A stretch of DNA of 64,000 nucleotides from positions 226,705 to 290,704 of the forward strand of contig CAWVJY010000008.1 of NCBI GenBank assembly GCA_963929915.1. Reading direction: 5' to 3'. Made by a program: the position numbers and the translations under genes. Below are positions 7,442-38,114 of this stretch, in pieces (position 1 is the first letter of the stretch; every line of letters starts with the position of its first letter). Below the pieces are notes generated by a model. That model had not been told where the DNA came from. It did not search any database and saw only the letters and a program-made list of their open reading frames with translations. This stretch comes from Bacillota bacterium. Its GTDB lineage: Bacteria; Bacillota; Clostridia; TANB77; CAG-508.

Positions 7442-8782
7442 ATGGAATTACTAAAAAGAAAAGTAGATAAATATTTAGAAGAATGGAAGGAAAGTCCAGA
7501 TAGAAAACCTTTAATTATAAAAGGTGCACGTCAAGTAGGAAAAACAGAATCCATTAGAAACTTTGCTAAGAATAATTATAAAAGTGTTATTGAAATTAAT
7601 TTTGCTCTTCAAAAACAATATAAAGATATTTTTGATGATGGATTTGAAGTAGATACAATTATAAAAAATATTTCATTAAGAAATCCAAACTATGAGTTTA
7701 TACCAGGGAATACTTTAATATTTTTTGATGAATTACAGGATTGTATTAATTGTGCAACATCCTTAAAATCATTTAGAGAAGATGGAAGATATGATATTAT
7801 TTGCTCAGGTTCGCTTATGGAAATTAATTATAATGAAATTGAATCAAATAGTGTAGGAAATAAAGAAGATTACGAAATGAATTCAATGGATTTTGAAGAA
7901 TTTCTTTGGGCAAAAGGGTATAGGGAAGAACAAATAGAAGACTTATATGTACATATGAAAAATTTAACACCACTTTCTAACACAGAACTTTCCATTATGT
8001 TTGAGAACTTTAAAGAATATATGATAGTAGGAGGAATGCCTGCTATTGTTAACTCTTTTGTAAAACAGAATAATTATAGTGGAACATTAAAAATGCAAAA
8101 ACAAATTCTTCAAGATTATGAAGAAGATATTACTAAATATGCAGGGGGATTAGACCATGCAAAAATTTTAAATGTGTATCGTAAAATACCTATATTTTTA
8201 GGAAATGAAAATAAAAAATTTCAAATTTCAAAAATCGAAACAGGTGCCAGAAATCGTGAATATATAGGAACAATAGACTGGTTAAGAGATAGTGGAATTA
8301 TTAATATTTGTTATTGTTTAGAACAGCCAGAACTTCCACTAGGTGGAAACTTTAATCCAGATAATTATCGTATTTACTTTAGAGATACAGGATTATTAAT
8401 TGGTTCACTAGACGAAGAAGCGCAAGAGGATTTAAGAAACAACAAAAATTTTAATACCTATAAAGGGGCTATTTATGAAAATATTATAGGAGATATGCTA
8501 GTAAAACAAGGATATCAACTATATTTTTATAAAAACGAAAAAGCTACAATAGAAATGGATTTTTTTGTTAGAGATAAAGACTCTCTTATTCCAGTTGAAG
8601 TAAAAGCCAATGATGGCGCTACCGTTTCCTTAAGAAACTTAATTGAAAGTGAAAAATATAAAGATATTAAGTATGGAATAAAGCTAGGATATAAAAATAT
8701 AGGATTTAATGGACAATTTTATACATTTCCGTATTTTTTAACTTTCCTTCTAAAAAGATATTTAAGAGAAAAAACGATATAA
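7442..8782 (+). CDS. AAA+ ATPase with DUF4143-type C-terminal domain
   Basis: Walker A GARQVGKT. Size and architecture are typical of the widespread ATP-binding, DUF4143 proteins of Clostridia. Confidence 0.7.
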   Translation: MELLKRKVDKYLEEWKESPDRKPLIIKGARQVGKTESIRNFAKNNYKSVIEINFALQKQYKDIFDDGFEVDTIIKNISLRNPNYEFIPGNTLIFFDELQDCINCATSLKSFREDGRYDIICSGSLMEINYNEIESNSVGNKEDYEMNSMDFEEFLWAKGYREEQIEDLYVHMKNLTPLSNTELSIMFENFKEYMIVGGMPAIVNSFVKQNNYSGTLKMQKQILQDYEEDITKYAGGLDHAKILNVYRKIPIFLGNENKKFQISKIETGARNREYIGTIDWLRDSGIINICYCLEQPELPLGGNFNPDNYRIYFRDTGLLIGSLDEEAQEDLRNNKNFNTYKGAIYENIIGDMLVKQGYQLYFYKNEKATIEMDFFVRDKDSLIPVEVKANDGATVSLRNLIESEKYKDIKYGIKLGYKNIGFNGQFYTFPYFLTFLLKRYLREKTI

Positions 8783-14607: not shown

Positions 14608-14695
14608 AATGTCCCAACTGGCTGAAAATCAACCAATAGGGACGTTCTTTTTTGGTCGAAAATCAGCCAAAAAGGACCGTCCCTCTTGGCTGAAA
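14608..14695. repeat. degenerate REP-like palindromic element related to the 26.7-33.1 kb REP family
   Basis: GTCCCAACTGGCTGAAAATCAACCAATAGGGACGTTC...GGACCGTCCC shares the GTCCCAA / GGGACGGTTC ends of the REP consensus. The GC-rich core is replaced by GGCTGAAAATCA-type repeats. Confidence 0.4.
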
Positions 14696-18573: not shown

Positions 18574-19888
18574 AAAAAATGTAACAGCATCTGAAAAAAT
18601 GAAAAATAAGAAAATAGCACCTCGAAAAAAGAAATCAAAGAATATAAAGAATATGTGGAATGACATTATAGGGCATAAAAAAATTCTGATTGCTTTGATT
18701 GTGGTTCTTGCGGTTATTATTTTTTGCATCTATAAAGTTATAATATTTATTCAGAACCCAACAGATACCTTTATGGTAGAACAAGGAATGATTTATCAAG
18801 AAGAAAAAGGAACAGGCTATGTTATTAGAGATGAAACAATTGTAAAAGGTTCTAATTATAAAAATGGAATGGAACAAATAAAAACAGAAGGAGAACGAGT
18901 AGCAAAAGGAGAAGACATTTTTCGTTATTATTCTAGTGGGGAAGAAAATCTCATAAAAAAAATACAAGATTTAGATGCAAAAATAGATGAAGCTATGGCA
19001 AAAGAGGAACCTTTGTATCCCAGTGATGTGAAAGCTCTAGAAAAACAAATAGAAGATGATATTGCTTCTTTATATCAAGTCAATAATTTACAAACAATCC
19101 GTGAAACGAAAAAAAGTATTGCAGACAGTATTACAAAAAAAGCAAAAATAGCAGGTGAATATAGTCCAGCAGGATCTTACTTAAAAAAATTAATTGATGA
19201 AAGAAGTGAATATGAAAATCAATTAAATCAAGGAGCAGAACGACTAACAGCACCAATTAGTGGTGTAGTGTCATATAAAGTAGATGGATTAGAAGATGTT
19301 TTAACAACAGATGATTTTAGCAAAATTACAACAGAATTTTTAGAAGGACTTAATTTAAAAACAGGGCAAGTAGTAGCGGATAGTAAAGAAAGTGCTAAAA
19401 TTATTAATAATTTTGAATGCTATATTGCTTGCAGTATGGATTCTGAACAAGTCAAAAATGCAGAAGTAGGGCAATCTGTTGACTTAAGATTACCAAGTGG
19501 AAGTGAAGTAACTAGCGAAATTGTTAATATTTTAGAAGAAGAAAACAAAGTAGTTATTACCTTTAAAATAGATAAACAAGTACAAGAACTTATTAGTTAC
19601 CGCAAAATTTCTTTTACCATTATTTGGTGGAGTGATAGTGGCAAAAAGATTCCAAATACTGCTATTGGTACAGAAACAAAAGGAGAAAATGAACTTCATT
19701 ATGTAGTTAGAACAAGAGCTGGATACCAAGATAAAATTTGGATTAAAATAAAAAGACAAAATGATAAATATGCCATAGTAGAAAATTATACAAGAACAGA
19801 ACTAGAAGAATTAGGCTTTACAGATGAAGAAATTCAAAATGCTATCAGTTTGACTTTATATGATGAAATTCTAAAAAAACCGACATAA
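18563..19888 (+). CDS. HlyD-family membrane-fusion-like protein (N-terminal TM, coiled coil, beta-barrel)
   Basis: Basic N-terminus plus one TM, lipoyl-like hairpin, long coiled coil, then APISGVV and GQSVDLRLP beta-barrel segments. Start moved from the track's TTG at 18548 to the GTG at 18563, which has RBS GGAGGA at 5-nt spacing. Confidence 0.45.
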   Translation: MENKKNVTASEKMKNKKIAPRKKKSKNIKNMWNDIIGHKKILIALIVVLAVIIFCIYKVIIFIQNPTDTFMVEQGMIYQEEKGTGYVIRDETIVKGSNYKNGMEQIKTEGERVAKGEDIFRYYSSGEENLIKKIQDLDAKIDEAMAKEEPLYPSDVKALEKQIEDDIASLYQVNNLQTIRETKKSIADSITKKAKIAGEYSPAGSYLKKLIDERSEYENQLNQGAERLTAPISGVVSYKVDGLEDVLTTDDFSKITTEFLEGLNLKTGQVVADSKESAKIINNFECYIACSMDSEQVKNAEVGQSVDLRLPSGSEVTSEIVNILEEENKVVITFKIDKQVQELISYRKISFTIIWWSDSGKKIPNTAIGTETKGENELHYVVRTRAGYQDKIWIKIKRQNDKYAIVENYTRTELEELGFTDEEIQNAISLTLYDEILKKPT

Positions 19889-19960
19889 AATATTACAATT
19901 ATATTACAAATATATTACAATAATATTAAATTATGATTACAAACACAAAAACTATTGACA
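19889..19960 (+). promoter_or_regulatory. phased ATTACAA repeat module plus TTGACA, upstream of sepF-divIVA
   Basis: AATATTACAATTATATTACAAATATATTACAATAATATTAAATTATGATTACAAACA then TTGACA. ATTACAA recurs at ~11-bp phasing. A 26-nt block is identical to the one at 37975-38030. Confidence 0.45.
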
Positions 19961-21272: not shown

Positions 21273-21338
21273 AAATTGCTTAGTACTAAAATTCATTGAA
21301 AAAATTACTTTACTTTTACAAATACTTGTTATATAATA

Positions 21339-21420
21339 CAACTAGAAAAATATTACAATTATTTAACATTATTACAATTGCATTAAGAAAATATTACAAT
21401 TGTGTTAAAAATATTGACAT
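21339..21420 (+). promoter_or_regulatory. second ATTACAA repeat module plus TTGACA, upstream of rsmD
   Basis: AATATTACAATTATTTAACATTATTACAATTGCATTAAGAAAATATTACAATTGTGTTAAAAATATTGACA. Confidence 0.4.
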
Positions 21421-25138: not shown

Positions 25139-26692
25139 ATGGATAAAAAGGAAAAAATACTTAAAAAGCTTCATATAACAGATTATACAAATCGCTTAGA
25201 GAAGGTTTTGGAAAAAAAGAAATTTTCTTTCGATACCAAAAATCTTCTTTTAAGCATGTTCTATAAAATAGAAAATGGATATCAAGATTATCAAAAAACA
25301 AAAGTACAAGTAGAAAATAAAGAAGATTTTTTTGAAAAAATACTCCAAATCATTGATAAAAAATGTGAAGAAATTATTACCACCAAAGATGTTTTAGTAG
25401 ATGAAAAAAAGCAAAAAGTAGATTTTATGGTAGATAAAGAAAAAGGAAAAATCGTAGCTTTAGGAAATGAATTTGTTTTATTAAACGCTATTTTAGTACT
25501 AGGAGAAAAAGAAATTTGTTTTCCAGAAGAAGAAAAGCTTTTACAAACACCATTTACAGCCTTTTTTAATTTAGGACTAAGAATGCATGAAACAGAAGTA
25601 ATTCGAGATTTTAATGGCTGGTCATGGGATATTGTTACAAAAGATATTACCAATATTCCTGTAAATCTTATCTTCCAAAGTTTTCTATATTTACTAGGGC
25701 AAGATTTTATGGCTCAATGGATAAATAATAAGAGTGAATTAGCAGATTATTTTATGTTAGCTGCTGAGAACATGAAACAAAACTTTGGAGAAGAAAGAAG
25801 TAAAAAAATAGTATCTCTATTTTGTAAATTAGTGATAGAGATTGTGGCAGAACAGGATGAAACACAAGCAACTTTATGGAAAAAGTTAAAAAAGGAAAAT
25901 AAAATAGAATTAGAAAAATTAAGTAATAAGCCAAAATTTCTAGAAGAAATTACCAAAGAAAAAAAGGAAATCACCAAAAAAATTGAAAAAATTGATAAAA
26001 TCATGAATAATAAGATTCTTTTACAACAGGAGTATGAAGAAAGAAATGAAAAATTACCTAATAAAGAGAAGATTTTTAGTATTAGGCATTTAACCAATCG
26101 TTTAGTAGAAGAAAGACAAGAACTAGTTGAGAAAATGAAACAAAGCAACAATTTAATTGATCCAAAAGAATATGTTGCTCGTAAGGAAAAAGTAGAAAAA
26201 AGGGTAGAGTTTTTAGATAGTTTAGATTTAGAAAATAAAACAGATAGAAGAGAAGCGTTATTACAACTATGTATACTATTCTTAGAATGTTTTGAAATCA
26301 AAACCATTAAAGCACAAAAAAAGGAAGAAGTCATTCATTATTTTTACGAATTAAGATATTATCGCTTTTTACCTTTTGAAGAAGAAGTGAAACTAAAAGA
26401 AATAGAAAAATTAAATCATATTTTTGAAAAAGAAATATCATTATTAATAGAAAAAGCACAAAAAATGGCAATTATTGATGAAGTTACGGCAGATAAAGAA
26501 ATTAATCAAAAAATCATTGGAAACTTATTTAATAGTAAATTAATTGATTTAAATCATTTAATTATTGAAACAAAAGTAGAAGAAGGCAAATTATATGCAG
26601 AATATTATGATACTAATATTTTAGAAAATGTTGTAGAAGTACAAAGCAATAGAACGGTGAAACTAAAGAAAAAGACAAAATTGTTTCTTTAG
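25139..26692 (+). CDS. hypothetical Lys/Glu-rich coiled-coil protein
   Basis: ORF with RBS AAAAGGTGG. The stop codon abuts REP copy A. Confidence 0.4.
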   Translation: MDKKEKILKKLHITDYTNRLEKVLEKKKFSFDTKNLLLSMFYKIENGYQDYQKTKVQVENKEDFFEKILQIIDKKCEEIITTKDVLVDEKKQKVDFMVDKEKGKIVALGNEFVLLNAILVLGEKEICFPEEEKLLQTPFTAFFNLGLRMHETEVIRDFNGWSWDIVTKDITNIPVNLIFQSFLYLLGQDFMAQWINNKSELADYFMLAAENMKQNFGEERSKKIVSLFCKLVIEIVAEQDETQATLWKKLKKENKIELEKLSNKPKFLEEITKEKKEITKKIEKIDKIMNNKILLQQEYEERNEKLPNKEKIFSIRHLTNRLVEERQELVEKMKQSNNLIDPKEYVARKEKVEKRVEFLDSLDLENKTDRREALLQLCILFLECFEIKTIKAQKKEEVIHYFYELRYYRFLPFEEEVKLKEIEKLNHIFEKEISLLIEKAQKMAIIDEVTADKEINQKIIGNLFNSKLIDLNHLIIETKVEEGKLYAEYYDTNILENVVEVQSNRTVKLKKKTKLFL

Positions 26693-26733
26693 GGACGGTT
26701 CTCAGTGGCCCCATTTGGGGTCACTTGGGACAC
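26692..26733 (+). repeat. REP element copy A
   Basis: GGGACGGTTCTCAGTGGCCCCATTTGGGGTCACTTGGGACAC, with internal hairpin GGCCCC-ATTT-GGGGTC. Confidence 0.8.
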
Positions 26734-26836
26734 TTCATTAAAAAGAGAAAGATTAAAAATTATTACTATTAACCAAAGACCAAAATATAAAATATAATAC
26801 AAATTATAATTTTTTAGGAGAGGATTGAAATTAAAT

Positions 26837-28486
26837 ATGAAAATTACCTTTTTAGGAGCTACCAAAACTGTAACAGGTTCCAACTTTTTAGTAGAAGGGG
26901 CAGGAAAAAAGTTTTTAGTGGATTGTGGAATGTATCAAGGCAGTAGTAAAGACGAAATGAAAAATAGTGAGCCATTTCCATTTGATGTAAAAGATATTGA
27001 TTTTATGTTATTAACACATGCCCATATTGATCATTCTGGAAGAATTCCAAAGTTATATGTAGAAGGATATCGTAATCCAGTTATTACTACGAAGGCTACC
27101 AGAGATCTTTGCTCTATTATGTTACCAGACAGTGGACATATTCAAGAACAAGAAATTGGATGGCGAAACAAAAAAAGAATGAGAGAAGGTAAAGAAGCCC
27201 TACCTCCTTTATATACAGCAGAAGATGCCATCCATACTATGGAAATTTTTAAACCAGTCAATTATGATGAAATTGTAGAAATTGACCCAAATATTCAAGT
27301 ACGTTTTAATGATGCAGGACATATGCTAGGTTCTGCCATTATTGAAGTATGGGTAACAGAAAATGGAAAACAAACCAAAGCAGTATTTACGGGAGATTTA
27401 GGTAATAATGATATTCCACTATTATCTTCTCCTACGATGATAGAAACAGCCGATTACTTAGTAATGGAATCTACTTATGGTAGTAGACTTCATATGAGAA
27501 ATGACGATAAAGCCAGCCTATTTTTAGATATTGTTTCCGAAACATTAGATAAAGGTGGAACTGTTGTTATCCCGTCTTTTGCAGTAGGAAGAACCCAAGA
27601 AATTTTATATGAAATTAACAATTTAAAAGATGAACACCAAGATGAAGAATTTAAAAAGAAATATCAAACTTTAATGAGGGTACCTGTTTATGTAGATAGC
27701 CCACTTGCTATTTCTGCTACAGAAATTTTTAAGGAAAATGCTAACTTATTTGATGAAGAAACCCAAGCAATTATTCAAAGAGGAGATAATCCTTTAGAGT
27801 TTCCAGGTTTACAGTTTACTAGAACTGCAGATGAGTCAAAAGCATTAAATGAAAAGAAAGAGTCTGCTATCATTATTTCTGCTAGTGGTATGTGTGAAGT
27901 AGGTAGAATTAAACATCATTTAAAACATCATTTGTGGGATCCGAACAGCACTATTCTATTTGTTGGTTACCAAGCACCTGGAACTTTAGGTAGAAAGCTA
28001 GTAGACGGCGAAAAAATGGTAAGAATTTTTGGAGAAGAAATTGCAGTAAATGCAAGAATAGAATATATAGAAGGCTATTCTGGTCATGCTGACCAAGAAT
28101 GGTTATTAAACTTTATATATTCTTTTATTACAAAGCCAAAACATATCTTTTTAGTACATGGAGAAATAGAAAGTCAAGAAGTATTAAAAGAAAAAATATT
28201 AGAAAATGTGAGCATTCCTGTTACCATTCCAGATTATGGCCAAACTTATACATTAGATGAAAACTTAACAATGGAACAAACGGTAGAGCCGGTTTGTGAA
28301 GAAATAGTAGCAAGAAGAGATATTTTAGAAAAAATGAAGACACTTAAAGAAGAACTAGAAGATATGGAAACGATTATCAAAGAGGAATACTTTACAAAAA
28401 ATCCAAGCGATTCTAGTATGAATCTTTTAAAACTAAGATTAAATGAAATAGAAGATCAAATTGTAAAAATAGTAGAAAAAAGCTAA
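26837..28486 (+). CDS. beta-CASP family MBL-fold ribonuclease (RNase J / TTHA0252-like)
   Basis: LGATKTVTGSNFLVE ... LLTHAHIDHSGRIPKL ... FTGDLGN ... SGHADQ. Strong end-to-end resemblance to the bacterial RNase-J-family beta-CASP enzymes. Confidence 0.8.
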   Translation: MKITFLGATKTVTGSNFLVEGAGKKFLVDCGMYQGSSKDEMKNSEPFPFDVKDIDFMLLTHAHIDHSGRIPKLYVEGYRNPVITTKATRDLCSIMLPDSGHIQEQEIGWRNKKRMREGKEALPPLYTAEDAIHTMEIFKPVNYDEIVEIDPNIQVRFNDAGHMLGSAIIEVWVTENGKQTKAVFTGDLGNNDIPLLSSPTMIETADYLVMESTYGSRLHMRNDDKASLFLDIVSETLDKGGTVVIPSFAVGRTQEILYEINNLKDEHQDEEFKKKYQTLMRVPVYVDSPLAISATEIFKENANLFDEETQAIIQRGDNPLEFPGLQFTRTADESKALNEKKESAIIISASGMCEVGRIKHHLKHHLWDPNSTILFVGYQAPGTLGRKLVDGEKMVRIFGEEIAVNARIEYIEGYSGHADQEWLLNFIYSFITKPKHIFLVHGEIESQEVLKEKILENVSIPVTIPDYGQTYTLDENLTMEQTVEPVCEEIVARRDILEKMKTLKEELEDMETIIKEEYFTKNPSDSSMNLLKLRLNEIEDQIVKIVEKS

Positions 28487-28605
28487 TAAGATTAGCAAGT
28501 AAAAAATTTTAAATTAATTTAAAAAATGTCGCTGTGATTGTAAAAAAGAATAACTACAAATGGAAAAAGAAAAAACAGGATAAGTTACTAGAAAAGGGGA
28601 AAACA

Positions 28606-30585
28606 ATGAAAAATAAATATTATAATAATGCTATTATTGGGGGAAAAAACATTACAGCAAGTTATAGTAAAACAGGAGAATTGTTAAGGGTTATGTATCC
28701 AAATCCAGATTTTAGAAGTTGGATAGATGAATTTTTAACTGGTGTTAAAATTAATGATTCTGGAATGATTTATTTACATGAAGATTGCAATAATCAATAT
28801 CATCAATATTATACTGAAAATACCAATATTTTAAAAACTGAAATTTTAAATACCTATTTTCAATTACAAATTAAGCAAACCGATTTTGCCTTACTAAAAA
28901 ATAGCATATTGGTAAAAAAGTATGAATTTGAAAACAAAAATAATATTGATTTAAAAGTAAATTTTTTAGTACATAGTAAACTCTTATCAGATACCAATAA
29001 TATGGTAGGAAGTGAAGTAAAATATAATACACTAATTCAATATTGCCACGACTATTGTCTTTACCTTTTTTCACCATCTTCTTTATTAAGTTATCAATTA
29101 AATGATACTAAAGAAAATATTGGAAGTGGAGAAATTTATGATAAAGACTATATAGGTATGTCTTGTGATTCTAGTATTAGTTATGATATTGGAATTCTAA
29201 AACCAGGAGAAAAGAAAGAATTAGTGCTTTATTTGTATTTTAAAAATAATACGACAGCAGATATAGGAACAGAAAAAATAAGTAGTAAACAATTAGAAGA
29301 ACAGTTACTAAAAGAAATAGCCGAAATAAAAAAGATAGATGTACAAAAAGAAGAACAAGATGTAGAAAAATACTGGAAAAAATATGTAAAAGAACATTTA
29401 ACCATTCCTTTAAAACCAGAAACAAATACTTTTCATAAAAAATGGAACCAAATTTATCAAAGAAGCATTTTATTATTTCCTTTATTAATCAACCAAGAAA
29501 CAGGGGGAATTAGTGCAACTGTAGAAGTTGATGAAAATATGACACAATGTGGAAGATATGCCTATTGCTGGCCAAGAGATGCAGTATGGATTACCAAAGC
29601 ATTAGATTTGCTAAAAATGACAAAGGAAACGGAAAAATTTTATAAAATCTTCTGCAAAGAAACCCAAAGTAAAAATGGAATGTGGGAACAAAGATTTTAT
29701 ACAGATGGAAAATTAGCACCTTGTTGGGGATATCAAATTGATGAAACAGCCAGTGTTATTTATGGAGTTTATGAACATTATAAGGTAGTAAAAGATGCTA
29801 AATTTTTAAAAGACACTTATAAAATGTGTGAAAATGCTGCAAAGTTTTTAGGAATTTATTTAGATAATGTGTTAGGCACAAAAGATGAATCAGATGTGGT
29901 AAAAAAAGAAATAGAAGAAACTTACCATACAGAGGGAAGAAATAAATTGCCAGTTAGTTATGATTTATGGGAAATGCATGAAGGAGTACATTTATATTCC
30001 TTATCTGCTATTTATGCAGCCTTTGAAGCAATGAAACAAATTCATATTGTTTTAAAACCAAGTTATGAACAAAATAATCGACTAAAAGTAGAAGCAATGA
30101 ACAAACTAGAAGCCAAAATGATAAAATATCAGGAAGAAATTAAAAAGTATATACTTGCCAACTTATATGACGAAAACACTAAAACTTTTTCTAGAAACTT
30201 AAATGATAATCGTACAGATATTAGTGAACTTGGAATGATAGTACCATTTGCTTTGTTTTCTGCAAAAGAAAAAAAGGTACAAAATACTATTGAAAAAATC
30301 AATATGACATTAAGAACTTATACAGGAGGATACTTAAGATTCGAGCAAGATCATTACCGTGGTGGAACAAGTCCATGGCCAATAGCTACTTTATGGATGG
30401 CAATGTACTATCAGAAGGCTGGAGAAAGAAAAAAAGCAAAAGAATGTATCGAATTTGTTGTAAATTCTGCCAATGAACACGGCTTACTAGGTGAGCAAGT
30501 AGACAACCAAACTATGCAGCCGAATTGGGCAATTGGCTTACGGATGGGCCCATGCTATGTTTGTTTTGGGGACGGTTCTCACTGA
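28606..30585 (+). CDS. glycoside hydrolase family 15-like protein (glucoamylase/glucodextranase fold)
   Basis: CWPRDAVW and DLWEM acid/base-region motifs of GH15. The last 6 codons and the stop lie inside REP copy B. Confidence 0.6.
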   Translation: MKNKYYNNAIIGGKNITASYSKTGELLRVMYPNPDFRSWIDEFLTGVKINDSGMIYLHEDCNNQYHQYYTENTNILKTEILNTYFQLQIKQTDFALLKNSILVKKYEFENKNNIDLKVNFLVHSKLLSDTNNMVGSEVKYNTLIQYCHDYCLYLFSPSSLLSYQLNDTKENIGSGEIYDKDYIGMSCDSSISYDIGILKPGEKKELVLYLYFKNNTTADIGTEKISSKQLEEQLLKEIAEIKKIDVQKEEQDVEKYWKKYVKEHLTIPLKPETNTFHKKWNQIYQRSILLFPLLINQETGGISATVEVDENMTQCGRYAYCWPRDAVWITKALDLLKMTKETEKFYKIFCKETQSKNGMWEQRFYTDGKLAPCWGYQIDETASVIYGVYEHYKVVKDAKFLKDTYKMCENAAKFLGIYLDNVLGTKDESDVVKKEIEETYHTEGRNKLPVSYDLWEMHEGVHLYSLSAIYAAFEAMKQIHIVLKPSYEQNNRLKVEAMNKLEAKMIKYQEEIKKYILANLYDENTKTFSRNLNDNRTDISELGMIVPFALFSAKEKKVQNTIEKINMTLRTYTGGYLRFEQDHYRGGTSPWPIATLWMAMYYQKAGERKKAKECIEFVVNSANEHGLLGEQVDNQTMQPNWAIGLRMGPCYVCFGDGSH

Positions 30586-30610
30586 CCCCTAATGGGGCCA
30601 CTTGGGACAC
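30568..30610 (+). repeat. REP element copy B
   Basis: GGGGACGGTTCTCACTGACCCCTAATGGGGCCACTTGGGACAC. Confidence 0.8.
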
Positions 30611-30753
30611 ATCATATCATCTGAATTAACTCAAATGAAAAAAGAATCATAAATAATTTTAACAAGTACTTGCAAAATTATAAAAAATATGAGAAGATGT
30701 AAAAGAGAGAGAATTATAAAAAAGAGGGGCACTATCGGAGAAAGGAGGCAATT

Positions 30754-31197
30754 ATGCCTAGAAAACCAAGAGATAGGAGTCCCTCTAATTGTTACCATAT
30801 CATTACCAGAGGAATTAATAAGCAAGATATTTTCTTTGATAACAATGATAAGGCCAAACTTCTTAAAGAAATAAGTAGAACAAAAGAAAAATATGAATAT
30901 GAATTATATGCTTATGTTCTAATGCCAAATCATATTCATTTACTAATTAAAGAAAATACTCATTCGATTTCTGAAATTATGAGAAGTCTTTTGATAAGTT
31001 ATGCTGAATATATTAACAAGAAATATGATAGGATTGGATATGTCTTTCAGAATCGATTTACTAGTAGACCAGTTGAAAACGATATTTATTTTAGAAATGT
31101 GGTACGTTATATTCATTTAAACCCACAAAAAGCCGGAATTTCTATATATAGTCAATATAAATGGAGTCAGTTACCAAGATTATTGCAAAGACAATAA
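30754..31197 (+). CDS. REP-associated tyrosine transposase (RAYT; IS200/IS605-like Y1 HUH enzyme)
   Basis: YHIITRG ... LYAYVLMPNHIHLLI (HuH) ... RYIHLNP (catalytic Tyr region). Flanked by inverted REP copies B(+) and C(-). Confidence 0.85.
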   Translation: MPRKPRDRSPSNCYHIITRGINKQDIFFDNNDKAKLLKEISRTKEKYEYELYAYVLMPNHIHLLIKENTHSISEIMRSLLISYAEYINKKYDRIGYVFQNRFTSRPVENDIYFRNVVRYIHLNPQKAGISIYSQYKWSQLPRLLQRQ

Positions 31198-31316
31198 TAG
31201 TCTGGTTGATGTAGAAAAAGGAAAAAAATAGATTTGAGAATATAAACGGAAACTTTGAAGAATCTTTTGAAAAATTTCATAATGAACAACTAAATGATAG
31301 TATAGAAGAAGAAATT

Positions 31317-31571
31317 ATGGAGTATGAAATAAAAAGTGTGTTGGAAGATGAGGATTTATATAGAATTTTGAAAGAAAAAATAGGAGAACAAGAAATACAT
31401 AATCTTCACCGATATCAAAAAAAATATCGAAATAAAGTACTGATGCAGATATTGAAAATAAAAGGTACAAATTGTGCTCAAATTTCAAGAGTGACAGGAA
31501 TTAGTAAAAAACTAATTAAGAAAGCTAGAGAACAATTTTTAAAGAATAAACCGAAAATTAAAATAGTATAA
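31317..31571 (+). CDS. small HTH protein (possibly a remnant of a transposase OrfA-like gene)
   Basis: NCAQISRVTGISKKLIKKAREQF helix-turn-helix. The upstream in-frame sequence is open for ~100 nt without a start codon. Confidence 0.35.
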   Translation: MEYEIKSVLEDEDLYRILKEKIGEQEIHNLHRYQKKYRNKVLMQILKIKGTNCAQISRVTGISKKLIKKAREQFLKNKPKIKIV

Positions 31572-31598
31572 TTTGAATAGATTGGAGGAAATGGAGAA

Positions 31599-31641
31599 GT
31601 GTCCCAACTGACCCCTTTTGGGGTCACTGAGAACCGTCCCC
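31599..31641 (-). repeat. REP element copy C (inverted orientation)
   Basis: GTGTCCCAACTGACCCCTTTTGGGGTCACTGAGAACCGTCCCC is the rc of the copy A/B consensus. Ends 7 nt before the radA ATG. Confidence 0.8.
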
Positions 31642-31648
31642 AGAAAAC

Positions 31649-33062
31649 ATGAAAGCAAAAACAATTTTTGTATGTAGTAATTGTGGATATGAATCACCAA
31701 AATGGCTAGGAAAATGCCCAGGTTGTAATGAGTGGAATAGTTTTTATGAAGAGAAATTAGCTATGCAAACAGGTTCAGGAAAACAGACAGAAAAGAAAGT
31801 AGTTACTCCTAAATCATTAAATGAAGTAGTAGGAAAAGATGCTATTCGTATCCACACTGGAATTGGAGAATTAGATAGAGTTCTAGGGGGAGGTTTAGTA
31901 AAAGGTTCTTTAGTATTAGTAGGAGGAGAACCTGGAATTGGTAAATCTTACTCTTATTTGGAACTTTGCGATAAAATGCAGGCAGAAGGAAAAGTTCTTT
32001 ATGTTTCAGGAGAAGAGTCTGCTGAACAAATAAAATTAAGGCAGATCGACTTGGAATCCACAATGACGACATTTTATTTTTAGGAGAAACTGATATTTCA
32101 CTTATAGAAAATACAATATTAGAATTAAAACCAAAATTAGTTATTATTGATTCTATTCAAACAATGTATTCTGAAGATATTTCTTCGGCGGCAGGAACAG
32201 TAAGCCAAGTTCGCGAGATTACAGCTCGTATTATGCGTATTTGCAAAGGAAATGAAATTACTACTATTATTATTGGTCATGTAACAAAAGAAGGAAATAT
32301 TGCAGGACCTAGAGTTTTAGAACATATGGTAGATACTGTACTTTATCTAGAAGGCGAAAGGTATTTTTCTTATCGAGTTTTGCGTGGCGTTAAAAATCGT
32401 TTTGGGCTCTACCAACGAAGTAGGGATGTTTGAAATGCAAAATGAGGGAATGGTAGAAATAACAAATCCTTCTTCTGTATTAATTTCAGAAAGGGAGGAT
32501 AATCCTTCAGGTTCTGTTATTATTGCAAGTATGGAGGGAACTAGACCTTTGTTAATAGAATTACAGGCATTAACGACACCGACTGTATTTGGTTTTCCGC
32601 GTAGAACAGCCAATGGAATTGATTATAACAGGCTTACTTTGTTAGTTGCAGTACTAGAAAAAAGGGCTGGACTTGCATTAAGTTCACAAGATGTGTATTT
32701 AAATGTAGTAAGTGGAATCAGAATTGTAGAACCTGCTGCAGACCTAGGCATGATTTTAGCTTGTTGTTCTAGTTTTAAAAATACTAGTATTCCTAAAAGT
32801 ACAGTTGTTATTGGAGAAGTACGGATTAACAGGAGAGGTAAGAGCAGTAAATTTAATAGAAAAAAGATTAAAAGAAGCGGAAAAATTAGGATTTAAAACT
32901 TGTATTATACCAGAAAGTAATAAAAAACTATTGAAAGATAAGTACAAGTTAGATATAATAGGGGTTAGAAATGTAAATGAGGCGATGAAAAGTAGTGGGG
33001 CTAAAGTAAAAGTTAAGAAATTTAGTGAAGTGTCCCAAGTGGCCCCATTTGGGGCTACATAG
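31649..33062 (+). pseudogene. radA: DNA repair protein RadA/Sms, broken into 4 frames (may be indel errors)
   Basis: C4 zinc finger (CSNCGYESPKWLGKCPGCNEW), Walker A GEPGIGKS, KNRFG motif, Lon-like C-domain. Pieces at 31649-32083, 32164-32433, 32384-32896 and 32805-33062. The 3' end runs into REP copy D. Confidence 0.8.
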
Positions 33063-33071
33063 AACCGTCCC
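33030..33071 (-). repeat. REP element copy D (inverted orientation)
   Basis: GTGTCCCAAGTGGCCCCATTTGGGGCTACATAGAACCGTCCC. Confidence 0.8.
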
Positions 33072-33087
33072 TAGAAAGGAAAATGTG

Positions 33088-34144
33088 ATGATTACTGATA
33101 TTTTAAAAATGATTGCACCTGGTACTCCTATTCGTGATGGTTTAGAAAATATTCTAAAGGCAAAAACTGGTGCATTAATTGTCATAGGAGATAGTAAAGA
33201 AGTATTAGATTTAGTAGATGGTGGTTTCCAATTAAATATTGACTATACCTCCTCCAGGCTTTATGAACTTGCTAAAATGGATGGTGCAATTGTGTTAAGT
33301 AGCGATTTCAAAAAAATTCTTTATGCTAATGCACAATTAATACCACAGTCTAGTATTACTACTACAGAAACCGGTACTAGACATCGTACGGCAGAGCGTA
33401 CTGCAAAACAAACAGGAGCCCTAGTAATTAGCATTTCACAAAGAAGAAGTATTATTACTATTTTTAAAGGTAACCTCCGCTATGTTTTAGAAGATACTGC
33501 AAAAGTAATTTCCAAAGCAAACCAGGCATTACAAACAGTAGAAAAATATAAAAAGGTGTTTGATAATAAACTAAGTTTATTAAATGAATATGAGTTTAAT
33601 GATATTGTTACTTTAGAAAATGTAATTAATGCCATTCAACGTGCAGAAATGGTAATGAAAGTAGTAGAAGAGGTGCAAAGGTCTATTTACGAATTAGGAG
33701 AAGAGGGAAGACTTCTAGAAATGCAATTAGAAGAATTAGTTGGTGATTTAGAAAAAGAAGAACTTTTAATTATAAAAGATTATATTGCACCTGGTAAAAA
33801 ACGTACTGCAGAAAAAGTATTAGCAGAAATTCAAAGTTTAGAACATGATGATTTGATGGTTCTAGAAAAAAATAGCTAATCTTCTAGGATATGAAGATTT
33901 CGACAATTATGACGAAGTAGGTGTTTATACAAGAGGCTATAGAGTGCTTAGTAAAATTCCTAGAATGCCAAGTAATATTGTGGAGAATTTAGTTAAGTCA
34001 TTTAAATCTTTCCAACATATTTTGGCAGCAGATTTACAGCAATTAGATGATGTAGATGGCATTGGAGAGGTAAGAGCAAGAACCATTAAACAGTCTTTGA
34101 AACGTATGCAAGAACAATTTGTATTTGACAATTTAATGTTATAA
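33088..34144 (+). pseudogene. disA: DNA integrity scanning protein DisA (diadenylate cyclase), frameshifted near 33875 (may be an indel error)
   Basis: DAC domain DGAIVL ... TRHRTAERTAKQTGALVISISQ. The C-terminal HhH domain continues in another frame (33944-34144: RMPSNIVENL...DDVDGIGEVRARTIKQ). Real start is the ATG at 33088, after RBS AAAGGA. The track's longer ORF starts inside REP D. Confidence 0.8.
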
Positions 34145-37780: not shown

Positions 37781-37835
37781 ACATAAGTTTTTATTTTTAC
37801 ATGCATAATATGATTCTAAAATTTATTTTATAAAA

Positions 37836-37970
37836 GGAATAGAATTGTCTTTTTCAATTTTTAAAACCTTTCCCCTTTTGGACATCTGTAACTCGGCGTA
37901 AACGCCTCGAACAGCTGTCACAATGGTCGCCCACGCAAGGCTTAAAAATTTCAAAAGACAATTCTATTCC
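37836..37970. repeat. ERIC-like 135-bp imperfect palindrome, copy 1
   Basis: GGAATAGAATTGTCTTTTTCAATTTTT ... AAAAATTTCAAAAGACAATTCTATTCC termini. GC-rich core CTCGGCGTAAACGCCTCGAACAGCTGTCACAATGGTCGCCCACGCAAGGC is ~95% identical to the copy at 53645-53779. Confidence 0.6.
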
Positions 37971-37974
37971 TTTT

Positions 37975-38030
37975 ATATTTAATACTTTATTACAATTATA
38001 TTACAAATATATTAAATTTATATTACAAAC
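37975..38030 (+). promoter_or_regulatory. third ATTACAA repeat module, upstream of the Tad-like cluster
   Basis: TTATTACAATTATATTACAAATATATTAAATTTATATTACAAACAAAG. Shares the 26-nt block ATTACAATTATATTACAAATATATTA with the sepF upstream module. Confidence 0.45.
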
Positions 38031-38114
38031 AAAGAACTTATTGTTTTTAGACGAAAAATGTTGTACAATAAATTAAATGATGATATTTTGTAAATTTATA
38101 AGGAGGAACAAGCA

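Follow-up and report, generated by a model that had tools for sequence, protein, structure and literature searches.

The biology of repetitive extragenic palindromic (REP) sequences and REP-associated tyrosine transposases (RAYTs) has been worked out almost wholly in gamma-proteobacteria. Here we describe a REP/RAYT-like system of low copy number, belonging to an already described class, in a low-GC gut Clostridium. The system lies in a 64-kb stretch of the Bacillota bacterium contig CAWVJY010000008.1 (64,000 nucleotides, the whole of which is called the window below) and comprises four copies of a hairpin repeat (REP A to REP D, Table 1) and a gene for a Y1 HUH protein between REP B and REP C. 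We give a probability of about 0.78 to the reading that the four repeats are copies of a non-autonomous REP-like element serviced by this Y1 HUH endonuclease, a member of the TIRYT branch (subclass 2.1) of the RAYTs.

In the TIRYTs, the flanking inverted repeats carry the motif GGGGWSAS, and the terminal inverted repeat (TIR) families are dispersed (Di Nocera et al. 2013, PMC3733652). TnpA_REP subclass 2.1 has been equated with these TIRYTs in a later study, whose authors report that REP-like (hairpin) sequences were not found in the vicinity of subclass 2.1 genes (Quentin et al. 2018, PMC6006769). TIRYTs have been described, for example, in Acidobacteria and Stenotrophomonas, and Firmicutes go unmentioned in the two papers (PMC3733652, PMC6006769). 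Clostridia have been reported to carry Group 1 RAYTs, whose flanking 16-mers occur about 12 times (Bertels et al. 2017, PMC5581495). Since RAYTs of Clostridia and TIRYTs with dispersed TIRs are both on record, the kind of system described here is known.

Like the TIRYTs, the locus encodes a RAYT-like Y1 HUH protein of ~255–290 aa with a C-terminal helix-turn-helix (HTH) extension, and the repeat on either side of its gene belongs to a dispersed family of moderate abundance, with singlets and clusters. The outer ends likewise follow GGGGWSAS: GGGGACAG fits the motif exactly in the relatives represented by loci L017, L022 and L025, and near matches are found in the window and in the gut metagenome-assembled genome (MAG) 'uncultured Clostridium sp.' MGYG-HGUT-04078 (RAYT locus L004, ~95 per cent DNA identity to the window), namely GGGGACGG (seven of eight positions) and AGGGACGG (six of eight). 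Unlike in the TIRYTs, the 'TIR' is here a compact 44/45-bp box-hairpin-box unit with a covarying stem; there are two box-sharing subfamilies, and the heads of the repeats are placed strictly against gene boundaries.

The REP and bacterial interspersed mosaic element (BIME) system of Escherichia coli with its TnpA_REP (PDB entry 4ER8; Ton-Hoang 2012; Messing 2012) provides the best sequence and fold match. As in E. coli, a single-copy gene stands between inverted copies of a short dispersed hairpin repeat, there is more than one repeat subtype (types 1 and 2, introduced below, recall the Y and Z REPs of BIMEs), and the gene is deleted in some strains. Unlike in E. coli, GGGAC boxes on both sides of the hairpin replace the GTAG tetranucleotide at its foot, there are ~10 copies rather than hundreds, and the enzyme has an extra HTH domain and a sequence identity of 18 per cent. 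Vertical inheritance of a single-copy domesticated transposase together with its cognate repeats is shared with the REPIN-RAYT systems (REPIN, REP doublet forming a hairpin) of Pseudomonas and Neisseria (Bertels and Rainey 2011; PMC5581495), and decay of the repeats upon loss of the enzyme is a prediction of that model; unlike there, the type-1 repeats are singlets rather than inverted REP doublets, and their populations are tiny. The original prediction from the window had called the arrangement a canonical REPIN/RAYT one, which it is not, given the lack of GTAG, the lack of type-1 doublets, the ~10 copies and the C-terminal HTH of the TIRYT branch. Finally, the HUH/Y1 fold is the same as in the IS200/IS605 transposases (TnpA of IS608 and ISDra2), which recognize imperfect hairpins in single-stranded DNA and insert 3' of a short target, and on which the mechanism proposed below is modelled; unlike in that family, there is no mobile multi-copy insertion sequence (IS) and no tnpB, the IS200 score falls far below its cut-off, and the protein has a C-terminal HTH.

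Anatomy of the repeat

The repeat, which we call type 1, is a 45-bp unit made of a 10-nt box GGGACGGTTC, an imperfect hairpin of 24/25 nt and a second box GGGACACTTC, with the boxes in direct orientation. Spelled out, it reads GGGACGGTTC, T, CAGTGRCCCC, N4, GGGGYCACTT, GGGACACTTC, and the consensus is GGGACGGTTCT-CAGTGRCCCC-N4-GGGGYCACTT-GGGACACTTC. The four copies had been predicted at the right places and in the right orientations, but with a length of ~42 bp. The edges of the repeat are sharp, and its flanks show little or no conservation except for a short T-rich 5' stretch. No GTAG tag stands at the hairpin foot in the consensus; CGTC is found only on the complement, within the box, and not as an unpaired tag beside the stem.

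Box counts in the window exceed expectation: GGGACNGKTC is observed 4 times (0.04 expected), GGGACGGTTCT has 4 exact occurrences, and 8 matches with at most two mismatches compare with 2.3 expected in shuffles. Chance is therefore excluded as the origin of the repeats. Across 18 copies from three lineages, 26 of the 45 columns are invariant, and the unpaired boxes, invariant or nearly so, are the best-conserved parts, above the stem. In the same copies 90 per cent of the stem cells are paired, as against 31–60 per cent with the 3' partners slid; two stem pairs show compensatory changes (G-C to C-G and C-G to U-A), and the covariation score was reached by none of 500 shuffles. A repeat hidden Markov model (HMM) built from 13 copies and run with nhmmer over the window retrieved no full copy beyond REP A to REP D.

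Table 1. Positions in the window of the repeats and genes of the REP/RAYT-like locus.
Feature	Coordinates	Strand	Details
Type-2 compound	14608-14695		three GGGAC boxes, two hairpins
Hypothetical 517-aa open reading frame (ORF)	25139-26692		TAG stop completed by the first G of REP A
REP A, type 1	26692-26736	+	nhmmer 56.3 bits; plan GGGACGGTTC, hairpin, GGGACACTTC
GH15 glycoside hydrolase	28606-30585	+	3' end fused to REP B
REP B, type 1	30569-30613	+	left flank of RAYT gene, head outward
RAYT-type Y1 HUH gene (TIRYT / subclass 2.1)	30754-31571	+	Pfam Y1_Tnp, homologue alignment
REP C, type 1	31596-31640	-	nhmmer 56.3 bits; right flank of RAYT gene, head outward
radA	31649-33009	+	bracketed by REP C and REP D
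REP D, type 1	33027-33071	-	nhmmer 52.3 bits; between radA and disA
disA	33088-34144	+	downstream of REP D

A RAYT-type Y1 HUH protein with a C-terminal helix-turn-helix

The ORF at 30754-31197 matches Y1_Tnp (PF01797) with an E-value of 2.4e-16 and contains the HUH motif (30931-30939) and the catalytic Tyr135 (31156-31158). A RAYT gene with HuH motif and tyrosine, enclosed by inverted copies B(+) and C(-), had been predicted and is borne out, with the addition that its ORF is interrupted twice in the window. The part encoding the C-terminal HTH lies in another frame (31215-31571; tblastn frames 1 then 3), the gene being broken by two +1 insertions, a C at 31168 and A7 instead of A6 at 31222-31228, which we called against the intact 273-aa gene of MGYG-HGUT-04078. 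An intact 268-aa allele of the window lineage (P0155) is present in short-read contigs.

The intact protein scores 74.2 bits against the NCBIfam model REP_Tyr_transpos (NF047646) and 23.8 bits against the IS200 model (NF033573, cut-off 55). In a sequence search of the PDB, the sole Y1/HUH enzyme matched was E. coli TnpA_REP (4ER8). The same entry ranked first in a Foldseek search (E-value 1.9e-7, template modelling score 0.73) with an AlphaFold2 model of the protein (predicted local distance difference test score 85.6; C-terminal part confident and all-helical), and the IS200, IS608 and ISDra2 transposases ranked below it. Judged by sequence and by the predicted fold, the protein is closer to TnpA_REP than to the TnpA of IS200/IS605. 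No tnpB ORF occurs at the RAYT locus. The scores (74 versus 24 bits), the best match to 4ER8, the lack of tnpB and the single syntenic locus described below set the protein apart from an ordinary IS200 TnpA associated with TnpB, in line with the RAYT assignment of the original prediction.

In an alignment of 30 homologues, N59-H60-x-H62 and Y135-x-W-S-S are invariant or nearly so, and the C-terminal part contains a conserved HTH motif of the QISRxTGI type, Q(I/L)(S/A)R(I/V)(T/L)G(I/V). Pfam recognizes HTH_23 in 5/30 of these homologues, HTH_28 in one and Sigma70_r4_2 in two; the window/MAG protein itself has no significant Pfam HTH match. The architecture of a Y1 domain followed by a C-terminal HTH places the gene in the TIRYT / subclass 2.1 branch of the RAYTs. 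A profile search with the 30-homologue alignment gave a family of 5,179 clusters at 50 per cent identity (E <= 1e-30).

Co-variation of repeat and enzyme, dispersal and placement

A box-hairpin-box unit of 44/45 bp stands on either side of the Y1 gene in each lineage, its head pointing outward, and its boxes and hairpin are particular to the lineage. Specifically, the flanking unit is GGGACGGTTCT...ACCCT-N-AGGGT...TTGGGACACTTC in L015, GGGACAGGTC, TTTCCCGATTTGGGAAA, GGGACAGGTC in L017, and GGGGACAGTCC/GGGGACAGGTC with other hairpins in L022 and L025. Extra copies in each lineage resemble that lineage's own flanking copies.

In a dispersal scan that took one genome for each species, MGYG-HGUT-04078 had 11 exact copies, spread over 6 contigs, nine of them away from the gene on 5 other contigs, so that the motif is a dispersed family, as predicted, and is not confined to the region. 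Five single matches in unrelated high-GC genomes lack the second box and are dismissed as chance. A scan of metagenome contigs for the repeat returned one short contig only. The four window copies and most type-1 copies of the MAG are singlets, with no type-1 REPIN doublets.

All four window copies lie within 6.4 kb around the RAYT gene, and local clustering also occurs in L015 (five copies in ~6 kb), L017 and L022. The clusters are polar: copies to the left of the gene are all in + orientation and those to the right all in - orientation, a rule to which 7/7 extra copies beyond the flanking pairs conform. Counted in repeat coordinates, T stands at -2 in 20/20 copies, and at -1 there is G or A in 19/20.

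In the window and the MAG, the head lies at most 18 nt from a gene boundary at 12/13 sites, and between the tail and the next gene there are 17 to several hundred nt. Two classes of placement can be told apart. In class I, the repeat is co-oriented with the genes and its head is on or just past the upstream stop codon; examples are the stop codons split as TA/G by the head (the 517-aa ORF in the window, FtsK and GH15 in L017) and REP B on GH15. In class II, the repeat is antisense and its head is 8-25 nt 5' of a start codon, on the complement of the purine-rich Shine-Dalgarno (SD) region (flank GTCCC-cAGAAAGGAG-N-ATG).

A fixed locus between GH15 and radA

The order FtsK, hypothetical ORF, beta-CASP, GH15, [Y1], radA, disA, PPIase is kept in relatives whose Y1 proteins are 99 per cent identical (L004, L027-L033), and the full order from FtsK to PPIase around Y1 is found also at 70 per cent (L015), 46 per cent (L017/L018) and 44 per cent (L025) protein identity. 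At 43 per cent identity (L022-L024), the left neighbour differs and radA-disA is kept on the right; in the P0036 lineage, beta-CASP and GH15 are kept on the left and GAPDH lies on the right. In 24 contigs, read from 176 indexed blocks, the P0153 gene had a single setting. That the Y1 gene keeps its chromosomal position in all relatives retrieved indicates a resident, vertically inherited gene and no hopping IS, and across the contigs read, from six lineages, the RAYT gene appears to sit at one locus, off mobile DNA. A functional operon of Y1 with radA-disA was considered and rejected: the adjacency holds in five lineages, but in the P0036 lineage the Y1 gene is followed by GAPDH instead, and we therefore downgrade it to shared ancestry. 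The original prediction had also treated the 3.9 kb between REP A and REP B, with its two genes, as a cassette. We reject a mobile cassette, since the order FtsK, hypothetical ORF, beta-CASP, GH15 is conserved in relatives with, without or with displaced repeats, including relatives with or without REP A.

The product of the hypothetical ORF at 25139-26692 has homologues of 514-523 aa (L015 4372-5937, L017 4542-6086) between FtsK and the beta-CASP RNase. It has no Pfam or NCBIfam match and is syntenic in all examined lineages that keep the FtsK–GH15 neighbourhood.

REP B gives GH15 its last 5 codons (GDGSH) and its TGA stop at 30583-30585; the stop had correctly been placed inside the repeat, but with 6 codons. 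A frameshift at the 3' end of GH15 was rejected, as tblastn follows one frame to the end. In the MAG, L015, L017 and L025, the corresponding repeat likewise contains or overlaps the GH15 stop, so the fusion is old, being common to lineages of which the deeper ones have 44-70 per cent RAYT identity. The original prediction saw the repeats as actively invasive at gene boundaries; the fusion of REP B with GH15, being ancient, is no sign of current invasion.

On the right, REP C and REP D bracket radA as had been noted, and REP C occupies the same position in the MAG, L015, L017, L022 and L025. Its head is 8 nt, and not 7 nt as first given, 5' of the radA ATG (31649), and the reported lack of an SD sequence there is correct; next to REP C, a radA SD is absent in the window, the MAG, L015 and L034 and present in L017. 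The head of REP D lies 16 nt 5' of the disA ATG (33088). As predicted, the upstream disA GTG 'start' at 33025, which reads through REP D, is false, and the 370-aa and 351-aa DisA calls in the population correspond to presence versus absence of the repeat. The predicted overlap of REP D with the radA 3' end, on the other hand, probably stems from a frameshift artefact: owing to an extra A at 32988-32991, the radA ORF continues into REP D, and in relatives it ends at the TAA matching 33007-33009.

Gain, loss and decay among strains

We compared three lineages at the RAYT locus (87-95 per cent DNA identity). In the window-like lineage (the window and L020), REP A is intact in both members and REP D is intact in the window, L020 ending before that site. 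The MAG-like lineage (L004, L027-L033) has REP B and REP C only; its radA-disA spacer is empty, and at its A site the remnant GGGACGGTT stands before a gap of 85-95 nt. Between lineages that are 95 per cent identical, REP A and REP D can be present, partial or absent. In the third lineage (L034-L037), the second half of REP B and ~90 per cent of the Y1 gene are deleted (window 30593-31468), which leaves the last ~100 nt of the RAYT gene. Its REP B, REP C and REP D score 22, 14 and <11 bits, as against 50-56 bits for intact copies, and both REP C boxes are damaged. The GH15 frame of L034-L037 continues beyond its usual stop, and the decayed REP D adds 19 surplus residues to the DisA call.

In the outgroup L015, the radA-disA spacer is occupied by a copy and the A site is not; further L015 copies (7678, 13545) stand where the window has none. 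No target-site duplication could be read at the locus: the reconstruction of an empty site failed, and the A and D sites both differ by more than the 45-bp unit. None of the other MAG repeat loci overlaps the window, and they offer no further filled/empty pairs. The pattern at this one locus is as expected if the enzyme maintains or renews the repeats, and part of the decay could be neutral.

A sister subfamily

The original prediction listed a fifth, degenerate copy of the repeat at 14608-14695. The type-1 HMM gives only fragment matches there (E-values 1.9 and 8.5), and the element is instead a compound of a second subfamily (type 2), with boxes in common with type 1 and a different hairpin. 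Its GGGAC boxes alternate in orientation, at 14611-14615 (-), 14639-14643 (+) and 14679-14683 (-). Between them stand two hairpins of the type TGGYYRA-N3-TYRRCCA, unlike the type-1 hairpin, and the DNA of the compound folds strongly (z-scores -4.8 and -5.3). The simple type-2 unit is GGGACGTTCC, TTTTTGGCTGAAAATCAGCCAAAA, GGGACACTCC; in the MAG loci L001 and L012 such units occur as singlets, as a tandem cluster and, once (in L012), tail-to-tail with a type-1 unit.

Frameshifts and assembly quality

Seven single-base indels fall within 31168-33870: two in the RAYT gene, four in radA (~32040, 32407, 32822 and 32988-32991) and one in disA (~33868). The tested neighbours, 14 kb of genes, are intact: FtsK, the 517-aa ORF and the genes for beta-CASP, GH15 and PPIase. 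Both RAYT indels are shared with the Canu long-read contig L020, and it is only on long contigs (532 kb and 874 kb) that the fragmented gene versions of the window have been recorded. Short-read contigs of the species, by comparison, lack both RAYT indels and contain intact radA (454 aa, same 90 per cent cluster), disA (351 or 370 aa) and RAYT genes.

The ribosomal-protein operon at 59.7-64 kb is equally shredded by frameshifts. Within 59700-64000 we recognize L4 (60014-60319, 101 aa), pieces of L2 (61394-61755), S19 (62186-62419) and S3 (63280-63597). Because such shredded essential genes cannot be pseudogenes, they point to error-dense stretches of the assembly. The interpretation of RAYT, radA and disA as true pseudogenes is disfavoured by these genes and by the intact short-read alleles, and the indels are most likely long-read assembly errors.

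Proposed mechanism and alternative explanations

The reading of the repeats as a REP-like element serviced by the Y1 HUH enzyme draws directly on what was observed: the anatomy of the repeats, their dispersal, the synteny of the locus, the fold, the co-variation of repeat and enzyme, gain and loss between strains, and decay in the lineage that lost the gene. The gene and its two outward-facing repeats would form an immobile, vertically inherited 'REPtron/TIRtron' between GH15 and radA, in place before these gut Clostridia diverged. The enzyme would bind the hairpin in single-stranded DNA, for instance in the lagging-strand template, and its HUH metal site and Tyr135 would cut at or beside the GGGAC boxes. 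The 45-bp unit would then be copied or moved to new sites, always 3' of a YTR trinucleotide, and the copies that survive would be those with the head against a gene boundary; spread would be mostly local, with orientation kept. From the analogy with IS608 and TnpA_REP (4ER8) we infer the catalysis, the single-stranded substrate and its strand, the places of cleavage and the choice of target.

Several points weigh against this reading. Both the activity of the enzyme and the transposition of the repeats are predictions. The REP_Tyr_transpos score of 74.2 bits is below the equivalog cut-off of 80, which is consistent with a divergent branch carrying an extra domain. Copy number is low, with ~10 copies per genome in the one scannable relative, and single type-1 copies fold weakly as DNA (z-scores -0.75 to -2.4). 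There is no clean empty/filled pair, the indels at A and D including 16-60 nt of extra tail-side DNA. The RAYT-less lineage is 87-92 per cent identical to the window, and much of the decay seen at the one locus looked at could be neutral drift. Finally, were the RAYT frameshifts genuine, this strain would contain a dead system.

Among the alternatives, the one that fares best, and which we nevertheless regard as unlikely, is that the repeats are host regulatory or mRNA-stability hairpins selected at gene boundaries and that the Y1 gene is irrelevant to them. Heads within 18 nt of stop or start codons, the many copies directly upstream of SD sequences and the compensatory stem changes would all suit such a role, and REPs of E. 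coli are established stabilizers of transcripts (Di Nocera 2013). However, the repeat stem is not followed by a T-tract, no Rfam family matches the repeats, and the terminator scan misses them. Terminator and promoter consensus scans are uninformative in this AT-rich DNA. The two orientations relative to transcription are about equally common, and the unpaired boxes are better conserved than the stem. Moreover, the repeat sequence shifts in step with the Y1 protein and always flanks its gene, and the repeats decay where that gene is lost. A secondary, exapted RNA role of the repeats may exist.

Lower still do we rate the possibility that the Y1 gene and the repeats are immobile relics and that the polymorphism between strains reflects deletion only. 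Such fossils could be recognized in the two frameshifts that the window gene shares with the long-read contig L020, in the low copy number, and in the two polymorphic sites, both of which can be read as imprecise deletions (the remnant GGGACGGTT at the A site, indels larger than the repeat). Yet the ribosomal genes of the window make the frameshifts probable assembly errors, and intact 268/273-aa genes predominate in short-read contigs, with P0153 on at least 100 contigs and P0155 as the window-lineage allele. The catalytic motifs are invariant in the 30 homologues, the boxes are 100 per cent conserved between lineages with 70 per cent RAYT identity, and insertions are implied by the L015 copies at 7678 and 13545, sites without a copy in the window lineage, and by copy A of the window, which L015 lacks.

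That REP B, the gene and REP C constitute an ordinary autonomous IS of the IS200/IS605 type, with the other repeats as its solo ends or footprints, is very improbable: a Y1_Tnp domain is present, the inverted terminal repeats face outward like IS ends and the IS200, IS608 and ISDra2 transposases are significant fold matches, but the gene keeps one fixed syntenic locus down to 43 per cent protein identity and one setting throughout 24 contigs, every examined lineage with GH15 as a neighbour has the left repeat fused to the GH15 stop, tnpB is absent, the IS200 score remains at 23.8 bits against a cut-off of 55, and in L034-L037 the gene was deleted and not relocated.

Building on the reading of a REP-like element serviced by the TIRYT-branch enzyme, we tentatively put forward a wider proposal, of which we are more doubtful than convinced: that subclass 2.1 enzymes maintain a genuine hairpin-REP population in Firmicutes, with two box-sharing subfamilies that stay intact only together with the enzyme, local spread that preserves orientation, and landing on stop codons or SD complements.

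Other features of the window and its relatives

A third dispersed family, either a miniature inverted-repeat transposable element or an undescribed structured RNA, is represented by two ~90 per cent identical copies of a 158-173-nt element, at 37825-37982 and 53634-53791. An AT-rich closing stem of 25-36 bp surrounds a GC-rich core (…GGACATCTGTAACTCGGCGTAAACGCCTCGAACAGCTGTCACAATGGTCGCCCACGCAAGGC…) that is found also in the MAG loci L001, L008 and L013. The RNA fold of the element has z-scores of -11.4 (+ strand) and -9.8 (- strand), and Rfam returned no match to it.

At 45036-48191 there are four or five paralogous small genes with a common N-terminus, MENASKALIIAG…, followed by a hydrophobic stretch; their products look like type IV pilins or pseudopilins. 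The AT-rich motif TTACAAT-N-ATATTACAA is repeated in the intergenic regions 19887-19957, 21332-21411 and 37979-38043 and could be a shared operator/promoter element or merely low-complexity sequence.

In L022-L024, gene calls are split at the same places in three independent assemblies: radA into 244+205 aa, TsaD into 189+72 aa, Obg into 108+329 aa and MreB into 78+254 aa. It is possible that these splits reflect in-frame stops read as sense, that is, a recoded genetic code, rather than errors.

Implications

Beyond what the two TIRYT papers report, the locus adds a compact box-hairpin-box candidate substrate in a branch said to lack REP-like sequences, as well as box-sharing subfamilies, heads at gene boundaries, polar local clustering and a natural enzyme-minus lineage. 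On a practical level, the repeats explain miscalled gene ends and starts, such as the ends of GH15 and the 517-aa ORF within a repeat and the 19 surplus residues of the DisA call, and they mark likely hot spots of rearrangement and deletion. The HTH-bearing branch, which is the largest among the RAYT-like proteins, is without a defined DNA substrate, for which this locus offers a 45-bp candidate and a placement rule. If the proposed relationship between repeats and enzyme is true, the co-occurrence of RAYT-positive and RAYT-deleted lineages in human gut metagenomes would make a tractable natural experiment, and the system would allow the 'nested replicator' idea of REPIN-RAYT evolution to be tested outside the Proteobacteria.

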